Below are positions 51,984 through 59,240 of a DNA stretch of 64,000 nt, piece after piece. Source of the DNA: Bacteroidaceae bacterium (GTDB taxonomy: Bacteria > Bacteroidota > Bacteroidia > Bacteroidales > Barnesiellaceae_A); NCBI GenBank assembly GCA_017555825.1, contig JAFZFQ010000021.1, forward strand, positions 64,459 to 128,458, read 5' to 3'. A program made the position numbers and the translations under genes. Numbering within the stretch: position 1 is the first letter of the stretch; the number at the start of each line of letters is the position of its first letter. The notes beneath the pieces are model-generated. The model ran no database searches and was not told the origin of the DNA. It saw only the letters and a list, made by a program, of their open reading frames with translations.

Positions 51984-53177
51984 TAAGCACCAAACAACAC
52001 TTTTCTTTCTTTGATGTGATTACAGACAACGCGATGGCAACATCGACAGCACCCATTTGTGTTGTGAATTGATGAAATTTTGTATCTTTGATGTGATTAC
52101 AGACAACGTACAATCAGCGCGAAGCCGTTAGCGGTGTGTTGTGAATTGATGAAATTTTGTATCTTTGATGTGATTACAGACAACTTATTTGAACTCATAA
52201 ACTACGCAGAAGTTGTGAATTGATGAAATTTTGTATCTTTGATGTGATTACAGACAACTCTCTCTTCACTCTCTCAAGCTCGCCGCTCGTTGTGAATTGA
52301 TGAAATTTTGTATCTTTGATGTGATTACAGACAACAGCTGATTGACCGCTTGGAACACTTGCTTTGTTGTGAATTGATGAAATTTTGTATCTTTGATGTG
52401 ATTACAGACAACTTTAAGCGATTAAATAGCCCACTTTTTGTAGTTGTGAATTGATGAAATTTTGTATCTTTGATGTGATTACAGACAACGATATGCCGAA
52501 GCAACCACGAACCATTGTGTTGTGAATTGATGAAATTTTGTATCTTTGATGTGATTACAGACAACCGTGAGGTTCTGCACCATCGCGGAATGTTGGTTGT
52601 GAATTGATGAAATTTTGTATCTTTGATGTGATTACAGACAACTCAACAATGAAAAAGATAGTATTTGTATTAGTTGTGAATTGATGAAATTTTGTATCTT
52701 TGATGTGATTACAGACAACATACCATTAACTAATGGCAAATTTATTGAGGTTGTGAATTGATGAAATTTTGTATCTTTGATGTGATTACAGACAACCTCA
52801 CCTATCTCTATACCTCCATATCTTTGTTGTGAATTGATGAAATTTTGTATCTTTGATGTGATTACAGACAACCTACACTTTGCCGAACCCTCATCTATCA
52901 AGGTTGTGAATTGATGAAATTTTGTATCTTTGATGTGATTACAGACAACGCACCACGAAGATTGTGCTGAACGCTTCCGTTGTGAATTGATGAAATTTTG
53001 TATCTTTGATGTGATTACAGACAACGCATTGACGGATTGAAGAAACGATAACCCGTTGTGAATTGATGAAATTTTGTATCTTTGATGTGATTACAGACAA
53101 CGCCGAGTATAACCACGCCGTACACACTACGTTGTGAATTGATGAAATTTTGTATCTTTGATGTGATTACAGACAAC
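51984..53177 (+). CRISPR. CRISPR array: 15 identical 47-nt repeats + 1 degenerate terminal repeat, 15 spacers (type II-C style)
   Basis: The repeat is GTTGTGAATTGATGAAATTTTGTATCTTTGATGTGATTACAGACAAC. Copies start at 52061, 52138, 52212, 52289, 52366, 52443, 52519, 52596, 52673, 52750, 52826, 52903, 52979, 53055 and 53131. The degenerate copy at 51984-52030 has only its last 23 nt identical. Spacers are unique and 27-30 nt long. The + strand is assigned from tracrRNA complementarity and the repeat-internal promoter box. Confidence 0.97.
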
Positions 53178-53249
53178 ACAATATTCGCATCAAATTGTAT
53201 ATCAACAAGATATACCGCAGATTAGAAATAAAAAAAATGTCTGTAAAAC

Positions 53250-53282
53250 AACAAAACCGGCCTTGTAAAGGTCGGTTTTGTT
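53250..53282. terminator. hairpin between the array and the cas2 stop
   Basis: AACAAAACCGGCC-ttgtaaa-GGTCGGTTTTGTT: a 13-bp stem in which one position is G:U on the + transcript but A/C on the minus transcript. A T8 run follows on the minus strand (the cas2 side). Confidence 0.6.
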
Positions 53283-53285
53283 GTT

Positions 53286-53618
53286 TCAAAATAGTTCTAA
53301 TTGCTGACATGGCGTAGGCGCTTTCTTCTGCTTGGCCGCATGATATATCTCTATTTCACCAAATTGTTTGTCCGTTATACATAGTATTCCTACGTCGCCA
53401 TGCTCGGGAATGAAAGATTTAACTCTTTTTATATGCACCTCGGCATTTTCACGACTGGCACAATGGCGCACATAAATCGAAAACTGAAACATCGTGAATC
53501 CGTCATTCATAAGTTTCTTGCGAAAGTCGGCATACCGCTTGCGGTCTTGCTTTGTATCGGTAGGCAAATCGAAAAACACCAATATCCACATAATACGATA
53601 TGCACTGAAATAGGCCAT
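53286..53618 (-). CDS. cas2: CRISPR-associated endoribonuclease Cas2
   Basis: 110 aa. The N-terminus [14 protein letters not shown] is the typical type II Cas2 beta1 strand with the catalytic Asp. It lies directly downstream of cas1. Confidence 0.9.
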
Positions 53619-53627
53619 AACAAACGA

Positions 53628-57500: not shown

Positions 57501-59070
57501 TTTCATTGCAAGGATAGTTCTTGTCTTGAACATAATTCCATCTATACTGAGCAAGTTGTTTTTTATCAATATATCTACCAAGCAGGGCTTTTTGATTGAT
57601 TTCTTTTCTTTCATTCAGCCAATCGAATAATTCGGCATAATCATCTTCTCCTTTAATAAATTCGGCTGTAACATCTTCATCTTTTGTTGCACCCAACTTA
57701 TAAATGCGCAGATTGCTTATAAACTGCCAAAGTCGAAATTCTTGAAATATGGGATGCGATTTAGCAATACACTTCAATGCGTATCGTGTTTCTTTACCAT
57801 TATTTAGTAGATCTCTTGACACTCTACTTTCATAGGGACAGCTATCAATCAATGATTTTTTACTCTTCAAAGGTCGTTGATAGAAAAGTATATCATCAAC
57901 CAATAAGTAAACAAAATCTCTATGTGCAATATCATTGCGATGAGCAACATTATTGGGATATAGATGCTCTATACAAGAGGCATAGAGGTCTCTATCATTT
58001 AGCTCTGGATGAAATTCTTTTTGCTTCTGCAATATTCGCACAAGTTCTTCTTTATAAAACTTACGTTCAATAGTACGCACCAATTTTCCACGCACCTTTT
58101 GTGTCGGATTTTGCAATATTGCATCATATATATACTCTCCCACACTCTTTCCTGAACTTTGAATATTTGCTTGCGTCTTCTCTTTTACCAACGTCCAATC
58201 TTCTTCTTTAGGAACACGGAAAGAGCGTTTTACATTACCATCTTTATCCTTCTTGGGTGTACCGTCTGTATCCAAATCAGTGGTAACGATAAACTCTTTA
58301 GTTTTTCCCACCCAATCGAGAAATACAGAACTTGGCCTACGATATATCCAACCATTCTCTAAATGGACATTATACCATATATCCTTACCCTTTCTATCAC
58401 CCGAATCTTCTACCGCTACAACTTTCAAGGCATGATACTCAACAAGTTTGTCATTATTTGCCTCATCCTCTTCACCTCGCAACTGATAATATCCTCGTTT
58501 TTGATTGAAATTCAATAATATCCAAGCAAGCTCTTCTTTAGTTATTGGCTTGGATAAAGCCTTCTTGCGAATATAATATATAGTCCAATCATACGGTATT
58601 TTTTTCTTATTGCCATCGTTTCCTATAATTTGTGGGTGGTTCGACGCAAACTCGCACAACATTTCATCAAACGACTCTTGAAATAAGAAATGACTATTAC
58701 CATTTTCATCATGAGCCCACGGCAATTTGGGTTCTTGATTGTTAATAAACTTACCATATCGATCCAACGCACTTGCATAGTGCTGTGGCAAAAAACCACA
58801 CAAATTCAATATTCTATGCAACCTTTCACGACGCAATAGCGCGCGCTCACGCAAATGGCGCATGCCTCGCATCCTTGTTCGTTCTGCCGTTTGTGAAATG
58901 GAATTCCCTCTATCAAAATCACTTAACACCGCAGCATCCAAAGGTATGATGCGAGTTCCTGCATCCTCAATATGCTCTAAATAGGTATTACCATCTATAT
59001 CAGTATTCGCATTTACAACAGCCCATCCTATACTATTTGTTCCTAAGTCTAATCCGAGAATAGTTTTCAT
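54562..59070 (-). CDS. cas9: type II-C CRISPR-associated endonuclease Cas9 (large Bacteroidota form)
   Basis: 1502 aa. RuvC-I is ILGLDLGTNSIGWAV. The bridge helix is arginine-rich (RTRMRGMRHLRERALLRRERLHRIL). RuvC-II is IHIELGREM, HNH is YEIEHIIPQSRFFDDSFSNKV...VNKLKDN, and RuvC-III is DHRHHAMDAIVIA. All catalytic residues appear intact. Confidence 0.95.
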   Translation of the reverse strand: MKTILGLDLGTNSIGWAVVNANTDIDGNTYLEHIEDAGTRIIPLDAAVLSDFDRGNSISQTAERTRMRGMRHLRERALLRRERLHRILNLCGFLPQHYASALDRYGKFINNQEPKLPWAHDENGNSHFLFQESFDEMLCEFASNHPQIIGNDGNKKKIPYDWTIYYIRKKALSKPITKEELAWILLNFNQKRGYYQLRGEEDEANNDKLVEYHALKVVAVEDSGDRKGKDIWYNVHLENGWIYRRPSSVFLDWVGKTKEFIVTTDLDTDGTPKKDKDGNVKRSFRVPKEEDWTLVKEKTQANIQSSGKSVGEYIYDAILQNPTQKVRGKLVRTIERKFYKEELVRILQKQKEFHPELNDRDLYASCIEHLYPNNVAHRNDIAHRDFVYLLVDDILFYQRPLKSKKSLIDSCPYESRVSRDLLNNGKETRYALKCIAKSHPIFQEFRLWQFISNLRIYKLGATKDEDVTAEFIKGEDDYAELFDWLNERKEINQKALLGRYIDKKQLAQYRWNYVQDKNYPCNETHAIILSLLKKADISSAFLTNDIEENLWHILYSVTDKEEFVKALTKFAYKHSLNSSFIEVFKKFPPFDKDYGAYSAKAIKKLLPLMRCGKYWREQAIDEYTKERIEKLITGEYDDNIKLRVREKTIHLNNIADFRGLPLWLACYVVYGRHAESGELHKWNTPEDVDNYLKSFKQHSLRNPIVEQVITETLRTVRDIWKQVGHIDEIHIELGREMKNPADKRKRITERVIENENTNLRIKAMLMEFMNLEFDIDNVRPHSPSQQDILRIYEDGVLNSVSELPEEISTIIKKFSESDVKKRPTRSEVLRYKLWLEQKYRSPYTGEIIPLGKLFTPMYEIEHIIPQSRFFDDSFSNKVICESEVNKLKDNKLGYEFIKKHHGEKVELSFGKVVRIFTEDEYEDFVKKYYSANREKMRKLLMESIPEDFIARQLNDSRYISKLVKNLMSNVVREEGEEEAVSKNVIVCTGGVTDRLKKDWGVNDVWNKIVLPRFQRLNQLKDTNQFTAFTANGHEVPSIPIDLQKGFNKKRIDHRHHAMDAIVIACANRNIVNYLNNESASAKAQISRHDLQQILCEKVKTDLNGNYKWQLKKPWLSFTEDVYKTLNDIVASFKQNLRVINKANNYYTKYDPATGKKVVCKQGGAGMPTNWAIRKSMHKDTVYGEVNLRKIKAVSLNEALKHPECIVVKEFKKEVLMLLDKGLDAKKIKKHIDENKDVWSDINLSKVDVYYFTKDTKDRYFATRKVLDTSFDKKKIESSVTDSGICKILLNHLENYGGNPELAFSEDGIDEMNRNIQQLNGGKLHQPIYKVRVYEKADKFAVGQVGNKVSKFVEADKGTNLYFAIYENELVNEETGAIVKKRTFATIPLNVVMDRLKQGLSPAPADESGNSPKYVLSPNDLVYVPSDGGEITSIDKSRIYKMVSCSKSQVFFVPVNIANPIAQTVELGSNNKSERAWTDEMIKEICLPLKIDRLGNISIKGRE

Positions 59071-59141
59071 AAAATTGAATTTAAATTTTTCGCAAGTTAA
59101 GAAATATTTGTCTTAAACTATTATTTAGTTTGAAAATTTAT

Positions 59142-59149
59142 TATATTTG
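59142..59149 (+). promoter_or_regulatory. -7 box TATATTTG driving the predicted tracrRNA
   Basis: Exact TAnnTTTG match 6 nt upstream of the start of anti-repeat complementarity. It is divergent from the cas9 start at 59070. Confidence 0.5.
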
Positions 59150-59152
59150 CAA

Positions 59153-59240
59153 CATAAAATTTCATCAATTCACAATAAGGATTATTCCGTTGTGAAAACA
59201 TTTAAAGTGGGGGTAGATTTATGCTGCTCTCGCTTTTTTT
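59153..59240 (+). ncRNA. predicted tracrRNA
   Basis: 59156-59175 (AAAATTTCATCAATTCACAA) is a perfect reverse complement of repeat positions 2-21, extendable to ~24 bp with G:U pairs. It is followed by AAGGATTATTCCGTT, which resembles the SpCas9 tracrRNA nexus AAGGCTAGTCCGTT. Then comes the stem GTGGGGGTAG (59207-59216) / CTGCTCTCGC (59224-59233) and a T7 run (59234-59240). The 5' end is approximate. Confidence 0.8.

Follow-up and report, generated by a model that had tools for sequence, protein, structure and literature searches.

The 64,000-nt stretch of DNA analysed here (hereafter the window, in whose numbering all coordinates are given) originates from an uncultured gut Bacteroidaceae bacterium. 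It contains an array of clustered regularly interspaced short palindromic repeats (CRISPR), the genes cas2, cas1 and cas9 and a candidate trans-activating CRISPR RNA (tracrRNA). This locus is flanked by nfo (NF002199, 497 bits) on one side and by orf91 and a glycoside hydrolase family 13 (GH13) amylase gene on the other (Table 1). We consider it highly probable that the locus represents a complete type II-C CRISPR-Cas9 system that is resident and probably active, and that would have occupied this site since before related lineages split.

Table 1. Features of the CRISPR-Cas locus and its surroundings, with GC content overall and at third codon positions (GC3); crRNA, CRISPR RNA.
Feature	Position	Strand	GC	GC3	Description
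Degenerate terminal repeat	51984-52030	+			Oldest array end, directly after the nfo stop codon; 29 of 32 nt in 51999-52030 match the 3' part of the repeat
CRISPR array	52031-53177	+	0.353		15 spacers (27-30 nt) and 15 identical 47-nt repeats; crRNA sense is the plus strand
AT-rich leader-like sequence	53178-53247	+			cas2-proximal array end; conserved beside the last repeat in contigs L045 and L046; putative spacer integration site
GC-rich hairpin	53248-53285				AACAAAACCGGCC-TTGTAAA-GGTCGGTTTTGTT, flanked by A and T runs, read from the sequence; between the convergent array and cas operon; putative bidirectional terminator
cas2	53286-53618	-	0.414		110 aa; TIGR01573 (76 bits); PF09827; PADLOC Cas2_II
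cas1	53628-54560	-	0.502	0.553	310 aa; type II/NMENI class; TIGR03639 cas1_NMENI (309.6 bits); PADLOC Cas1_II (383 bits)
cas9	54562-59070	-	0.378	0.358	1502 aa; TIGR01865 (423 bits, cutoff 100); Pfam RuvC_III, HNH_4 and Cas9-BH (PF18541, PF13395, PF16593)
tracrRNA promoter box	59142-59149	+			TATATTTG; Bacteroidota -7 box; with the tracrRNA, a putative transcription unit
tracrRNA (putative)	~59154-59240	+			~87 nt, upstream of cas9 on the opposite strand; 5' end approximate
Anti-repeat	59156-59176	+			21 nt; perfect pairing with the first 21 nt of the repeat, one pair being G-U
Nexus hairpin	59177-59188	+			Short, GGA-UUAU-UCC
tracrRNA 8-mer	59189-59196	+			GUUGUGAA / GTTGTGAA; identical, in direct orientation, to the first 8 nt of every repeat
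Terminator hairpin	59205-59240	+			13 bp with U-run
orf91	59360-59635	+			91-aa conserved hypothetical protein; TACATTTG box ahead of it at 59311
Neighbouring genes			0.49-0.56

The open reading frames (ORFs) and family matches agreed with the preliminary description of this DNA, which had read cas9-cas1-cas2 on the minus strand, with gaps of 1 nt (cas9/cas1) and 9 nt (cas1/cas2) and without csn2 or cas4, as subtype II-C. A Cas9 with RuvC-I, RuvC-II, RuvC-III and HNH motifs was found together with a tracrRNA containing an anti-repeat and with an array and cas1-cas2, which are the features of a type II system. The full set of Cas9 catalytic residues was present (D8, E732, H862, N885, H1056 and D1059), confirming the earlier statement that the RuvC and HNH motifs are intact; D8 and H862 aligned with the two substitutions in a deposited dead CbCas9. 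Neither csn2, cas4 nor any further cas gene was found within the locus or in the 10 kb around it, based on the ORF list and on the Pfam families of the neighbours, which were unrelated. All other ORFs of ≥60 aa in 51984-59300 were located inside the array or nested in the cas genes. Since csn2 and cas4 were not found in the locus, it was assigned to subtype II-C. The model for Cas9d (subtype II-D) scored 82 bits with the window Cas9, against a cutoff of 375, and a similarity search ranked the II-C enzyme CbCas9 first among PDB sequences, followed by the II-C Nme- and Geo-like enzymes. The same Cas9 sequence was present on four independent contigs, and the window contig recurred in ENA metagenome assemblies at 99.99% identity. 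Housekeeping proteins grouped with those of metagenome-assembled genomes carrying the labels Bacteroidaceae or Bacteroidales.

The repeat (GTTGTGAATTGATGAAATTTTGTATCTTTGATGTGATTACAGACAAC) occurred in 15 identical copies, the first from 52061 and the last at 53131-53177. Together with the degenerate terminal copy, these account for the 16-repeat array with 15 identical repeats and unique spacers that had been described before. All 15 spacers were unique and none was found elsewhere in the window. Positions 23-30 of the repeat read TATCTTTG, a Bacteroidota -7 promoter box (TAnnTTTG), in 15 of 15 copies, and the box was kept at the same place of the repeat in most of the related loci (more than 30, drawn from the genomes of 31 species plus metagenome contigs). 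We infer that each repeat carries its own promoter box driving transcription of the array. Repeat-encoded promoters aimed at the variable end have been published for Flavobacterium II-C arrays, and repeat-embedded promoters were first described in Neisseria (PMC10309648 and reference therein). No CRISPR-repeat or tracrRNA family of Rfam was found in a permissive scan of 51500-60000 or in a gathering-threshold scan of the whole window; the only Rfam matches were a chance-level match to 'lactis-plasmid' over the terminator and a transfer-messenger RNA (tmRNA).

Because of the complementarity with the anti-repeat, the crRNA sense was taken as the plus strand, with the array read toward cas2. The tracrRNA core (WTCACAATAAGGATTATTCCGTTGTGAAAACAT) was nearly invariant across the more than 30 related loci, and in 24 of 33 of these the anti-repeat was preceded, at a constant spacing, by a TAnnTTTG box. 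Repeat and anti-repeat co-varied between loci, with a mean of -28.3 kcal/mol for cognate duplexes versus -18.4 kcal/mol for non-cognate ones. The predicted fold of a construct resembling a single-guide RNA consisted of the anti-repeat duplex, the nexus and the 13-bp hairpin (z = -6.7). RNAalifold detected no covariation among 22 tracrRNAs, since the core is invariant. In the RNAalifold consensus, CACAAU and GUUGUG of the core (window 59170-59196, all relatives) can also pair intramolecularly around the nexus, and this helix would compete with the pairing of the tracrRNA to GUUGUG of the crRNA.

Protospacers were detected in phage contigs for seven of the 15 spacers (2, 5, 7, 8, 13, 14 and 15), with 0-2 mismatches each. 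Eight spacers, each represented by its 3' 22 nt, were used to scan IMG/VR, and the contigs fetched were then re-scanned with all 15. Four of the eight scans (spacers 8, 11, 12 and 15) gave no match in IMG/VR, and contigs retrieved through other spacers later yielded matches to spacers 8 and 15, with 2 mismatches. The matches of spacers 5, 13 and 14 were perfect; spacers 5, 7 and 8 hit the same phage group, and a single contig carried the matches of spacers 14 and 15. In GenBank, phages of Bacteroides uniformis were matched by one spacer at 29 of 30 nt. A comparison of the array with PLSDB plasmids gave chance-level matches only. The 3' flanks of the protospacers were GCAGAT, CCAACT, GTAAAT/GCAAAT, GTAAAT, GTAGAT, ATAAAA and GCAAAT. 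They were consistent at position 2 (Y), position 3 (A) and position 4 (R) in 7/7 cases, and at position 5 (A) and position 6 (T) in 6/7 cases, which suggests a protospacer adjacent motif (PAM) of about 5'-NYARAT. The targets of old and new spacers shared this motif. Phage protospacers with a common PAM argue for a system that has been active. The earlier reading of a complete locus with intact nuclease motifs, a tracrRNA and signs of activity is supported, and these protospacers add to it. Over 19.4 kb, contig L002 had 2 mismatches to the window contig (99.99% identity). The two differ in spacer 11 (window 52797-52825), whose final base, at the PAM-proximal seed position, is T in the window and A in L002.

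The window Cas9 was collinear almost end to end with CbCas9 from Chryseobacterium sp. (1442 aa), with 1522 bits over window residues 2-1191 and 1260-1498 and approximately 57.9% identity over 1297 aligned residues. This made CbCas9 the closest characterised relative among the PDB sequences compared. CbCas9 is represented by five PDB entries (8iyq, 8wmh, 8wmm, 8wmn and 8wr4; Zhang et al., Nature 2024) and has the PAM NNRAA. Both this PAM and the ~NYARAT of the window Cas9 are A/R-rich from position 3, but they differ in detail. The hosts also differ, being Flavobacteriales for CbCas9 and Bacteroidaceae for the window enzyme, whereas both belong to the large Bacteroidota II-C loci. Relative to CbCas9, the window Cas9 contained an insertion of approximately 65 aa near residues 1193-1264, which was conserved in Bacteroidales relatives and was predicted by AlphaFold, at a predicted local distance difference test score (pLDDT) of 70-89, to form about three helices plus a strand. 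The AlphaFold model of the C-terminal 420 aa had a mean pLDDT of 62 and a predicted template modelling score of 0.45, which is too weak to support domain-level claims; with this mediocre model, Foldseek returned CbCas9 as the sole PDB match (E ~1e-20). After the last CbCas9-aligned position (DRLGNISI), 4 residues followed in the window Cas9 and 14 in CbCas9. The C-terminal helix (CTH) of CbCas9 is bound by PcrIIC1, a PIN-domain accessory protein whose gene is part of the CbCas9 system. No additional ORF of this kind was found in the window locus, where gaps of 1 nt and 9 nt between the cas genes leave no room for it.

The Cas9 group is already known and structurally characterised, and the locus adds a member to it. 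The window system combined a 47-nt repeat, a bulge-free 21-bp duplex and full-length similarity to CbCas9, and in this respect fitted the clade X/CbCas9-like group. In such enzymes, most of the extra length reportedly reflects the structural growth of Cas9 within subtype II-C, of which a beta-REC2 domain is part. The clade X Cas9s have repeats of 45-50 bp and biochemically characterised guides (Gasiunas et al. 2020, PMC7606464). Compared by description, these guides resemble that of the window in the bulge-free full duplex, the Spy-like short nexus, the 3' hairpin(s) and the poly-U. The preliminary description had regarded the clade as biochemically little explored and its PAM, its guide architecture and the role of the extra residues as unknown from sequence. 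These statements are superseded: CbCas9, at ~58% identity, aligns over almost the full length, with five PDB entries (2024) and a published PAM, and guides with 45-50-bp repeats have been characterised for clade X. Since the Cas9 groups with the characterised CbCas9, the locus is 'valid but not novel', an outcome that had been allowed for.

The history of the site was surveyed through contigs carrying the exact orf91 protein, and the locus was missing from about 3 of 11 contigs with identical orf91. Two contigs of the same species without the locus, L035 (9740-9900) and L038 (9317-9477), had flanks 99.1-99.3% identical to those of the window and contained a deletion scar. The scar consisted of the degenerate repeat (2 substitutions), 30-31 nt, and then (G)TGTGAAAACATTTAAAG... 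or (G)TGTGAAAACATTT..., corresponding to the tracrRNA from 59191; the junction sequence was GAGTTTGACCACGTGTGAAAACATTTAAAG, with TGTGAAAAC as its tracrRNA side. Because a repeat, a spacer-sized remnant and the 3' tail of the tracrRNA remain, these 'empty' strains lost the locus and do not represent a virgin site. The simplest reading is a deletion between repeat and tracrRNA at the shared GTTGTGAA, which would have removed the array, cas2, cas1, cas9 and the 5' half of the tracrRNA. The 8 nt common to repeat and tracrRNA might then provide an inbuilt site for excision of the entire locus. The remnant of 30-31 nt gave only chance-level matches to phages, so that its identity as a spacer is unproven, and because it differs from the oldest spacer of the window, the deletion history is not simple.

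Two further states were found in more distant lineages, with flanks 82-85% identical to those of the window. Contig L043 had a 76%-identical Cas9, a tracrRNA and a 5-repeat array at the same site; in its region 14485-15182, cas1-cas2 (equivalent to window 53391-54511) had been lost, leaving a 51-aa fusion ORF. In contig L045 (5851-9996; ena:ERZ27256852:k141_785537), the Cas9 had 1381 aa and only 31% identity to the window Cas9, with intact nuclease motifs. In contrast, Cas1 (91%), Cas2 (99%) and the amylase (92%) were conserved, the repeat differed by 1 nt and the tracrRNA was near-identical. DNA similarity between L045 and the window ended at 54561 and resumed from ~59010. The best PDB match of the L045 Cas9 was a partial one to CbCas9 (197 bits), with no close solved structure, and neither the 1502-aa nor the 1381-aa Cas9 has a solved close homologue of the other type.

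These data raise the possibility that only cas9 is a recent import, having replaced an earlier cas9 in situ through recombination with cas1 as one anchor and the conserved tracrRNA/RuvC-I end as the other, while the adaptation module, the array and the tracrRNA are long-resident. The conservation of Cas1, Cas2, repeat and tracrRNA between L045 and the window beside a 31%-identical Cas9, and the GC step between cas1 and cas9 (Table 1), are consistent with such an import. In-situ replacement of cas9 is also known from Flavobacteriales (PMC12669027, Extended Data Fig. 9) and from F. psychrophilum (PMC10309648). However, either cas9 type could be the newcomer, and the 1502-aa type is present in L043 (76% identity) at the same site. 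Since one and the same PAM adjoins the protospacers of old and new spacers alike (seven of seven), no cas9 swap occurred during the life of the window array. We regard an import of the window cas9 as possible but doubtful. With slightly more confidence, though still at less than even chances, the 1502-aa and 1381-aa Cas9s may be natural drop-in replacements for each other, using the same crRNA:tracrRNA and the same Cas1-Cas2 with different PAM-interacting domains. The L045 array yielded no credible protospacers in phages, so that the PAM of its Cas9 is not comparable.

The preliminary description had also taken the region as an inserted AT-rich block, suggestive of horizontal acquisition. The reading of array, cas genes and tracrRNA as a recent horizontally inserted AT-rich island between nfo and host genes draws on the GC content of cas9, cas2 and the array, which is 10-18 points under that of the neighbours, and on the GC3 of cas9 (0.358 versus 0.55-0.66). 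It could also explain why same-species contigs differ in carrying the locus and why related Cas9 genes of other genera occur in unrelated genomic contexts. However, the block is not uniform, as the GC content of cas1 (0.502) is host-like. Furthermore, among 21 related loci the mean GC content was 0.393 for cas9, 0.468 for cas1 and 0.475 for the flanks, cas9 was below the flank in 20 of 21 and cas1 was above cas9 in all 21. The low GC content of cas9 is thus a family trait that says nothing about the time of an insertion. A recent arrival is further at odds with the homologous loci that occupy this site in L043 and L045, despite flanks of only 82-85% identity, and with the degenerate repeat, 30-nt remnant and tracrRNA tail retained in the 'empty' alleles. 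No integrase, insertion sequence element or att-like duplication was found flanking the block. A recent whole-block insertion is thus unlikely and already largely refuted. As divergent lineages are occupied and same-species strains carry scars, the locus is long-resident and dynamic.

Several points weigh against a resident, complete and active system. The locus is known from its sequence alone, and the organism is uncultured and has been seen only in metagenome contigs. The PAM was derived from seven protospacers representing approximately four phage groups. A transcription start downstream of the repeat box would leave approximately 10 nt of repeat 5' of every spacer, which would have to be trimmed or tolerated. 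For cas9, the promoter was only a near-match (TAACTTGC), the exact TAnnTTTG box not being found upstream of cas9 on the minus strand. Additionally, the C-terminal structural model was mediocre (mean pLDDT 62), and the scar remnant matches no phage and differs from the oldest spacer of the window. The first of these points, together with the decay in sister lineages by whole-locus and cas1-cas2 deletion, would also fit a decaying or silent relic that looks intact and is no longer expressed or interfering. We consider such a relic very unlikely in view of the three full-length ORFs with intact motifs, the 15 identical repeats, the perfect phage matches of spacers 5, 13 and 14, the consistent PAM in all matches and the same Cas9 sequence on four independent contigs.

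In the resident and active II-C system that we propose, the cas9-cas1-cas2 operon would be transcribed leftward, and a separate TAnnTTTG promoter would drive the tracrRNA in the divergent direction. The array would be transcribed from the plus strand toward cas2, starting at the TAnnTTTG box in each repeat and possibly also by read-through from nfo, and its transcription would end at the hairpin between array and cas2. Each repeat would pair through its first 21 nt with the anti-repeat of the tracrRNA. Upon processing of the crRNA, a Cas9:crRNA:tracrRNA complex would cut phage DNA with a 3' PAM of about NYARAT through the HNH and RuvC sites. New spacers would be inserted at the cas2-proximal end, and this CbCas9-like large II-C enzyme would work without the accessory protein PcrIIC1. 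The locus at nfo/orf91 varies in three ways: by deletion of the whole, probably between repeat and tracrRNA GTTGTGAA, by deletion of cas1-cas2 and by in-situ replacement of cas9.

This organisation has counterparts in characterised II-C systems. The loci of Flavobacterium (Fp1Cas9 and Fp2Cas9 of F. psychrophilum, and F. columnare; PMC10309648, Hoikkala 2021) have the same order of tracrRNA, cas9, cas1, cas2 and array. They also have repeat promoters toward the variable end, in-situ cas9 replacement and strains with truncated or lost cas9 (PMC10309648). The PAM of Fp2Cas9, NNAAAG (PMC10309648), is A-rich from position 3 and resembles NYARAT but differs from it. The Flavobacterium systems belong to another genus and have another Cas9 sequence, and expression and interference have been shown for them, whereas the window locus has been characterised through its sequence only. 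The II-C system of Neisseria meningitidis (Zhang et al. 2013, via PMC10309648) likewise comprises only cas9, cas1 and cas2, with an NMENI-class Cas1, and its crRNAs originate from promoters inside the repeats, with the array transcribed toward the cas genes. In contrast, NmeCas9 has 1082 aa and matches only the HNH/RuvC core of the window Cas9 (~70 bits), the repeats are 36 nt with sigma-70 -10 boxes instead of TAnnTTTG, and the PAM is N4GATT.

The closest Cas9 in a named species was that of Phocaeicola sartorii (70%). A metagenome protein of 1793 aa (P0015) was 66% identical to the window Cas9 over 92% of the query and had, within the REC region, an extra insertion of ~270 aa (columns ~312-584 of alignment A2). 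Cas9 relatives with 53-61% identity and the same tracrRNA core were found in metagenome-assembled genomes labelled Acutalibacteraceae, Fibrobacter succinogenes and Spirochaetaceae (L015, L018 and L024); this placement reflects either inter-phylum transfer or binning contamination. Six related II-C loci (L008, L011, L017, L025, L026 and L032) had an extra gene between cas9 and cas1. It encoded a YhcG/DUF1016 PDDEXK nuclease in L008, a Bro-N protein in L011 (tested; the ORFs of L017 and L026 were visibly similar), a RhuM-family protein in L025 and a 253-aa protein without an assigned family in L032. These are candidate associated genes; PcrIIC1 homologues were ruled out, as none contained a PIN domain.

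Next to the locus, orf91 always adjoined the amylase gene, whether the CRISPR locus was present or not. The orf91 protein had no family match in Pfam, NCBIfam or PADLOC and nothing meaningful in PDB. A role as Cas accessory or anti-CRISPR was ruled out, given the lack of family matches and its persistence beside the amylase gene in strains without the locus. The tmRNA gene (ssrA; 48121-48519, minus strand; Rfam 128 bits, also found with ARAGORN) encodes the tag peptide GENTYALAA. Its distance from the array, on the left side, is 3.5 kb, and the DNA in between showed no island features. Farther left, an 84-nt unit was present in 2.1 copies with 97% identity (38584-38764). On the minus strand, each copy carried a TATCTTTG promoter box, a GAAGT-AAA-CTTC hairpin and a T-run, so that the element resembles a small transcription unit duplicated in tandem. 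No match to it was found in Rfam. In contig L046, a rearrangement fused window point 38763 to a residual CRISPR array.

With this locus, the CbCas9-like large II-C Cas9s gain a representative from Bacteroidaceae whose guide is defined and whose PAM is inferred to be about NYARAT; it could provide the group with a PcrIIC1-independent reference. The value of the locus is chiefly evolutionary, as one site exists in four states (intact, cas1-cas2 deleted, cas9 replaced, and deleted with a scar). In-situ shuffling of effectors and loss of loci, known before from Flavobacteriales, are thereby illustrated for Bacteroidaceae. The locus opens no new question, and the most interesting lead is the pair of putatively guide-compatible Cas9s with 31% identity. 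If the two are indeed drop-in replacements, the invariant tracrRNA core of Bacteroidota would be a guide scaffold common to deeply divergent Cas9 clades, and the swapping of cas9 would change PAM specificity while keeping the spacer memory.

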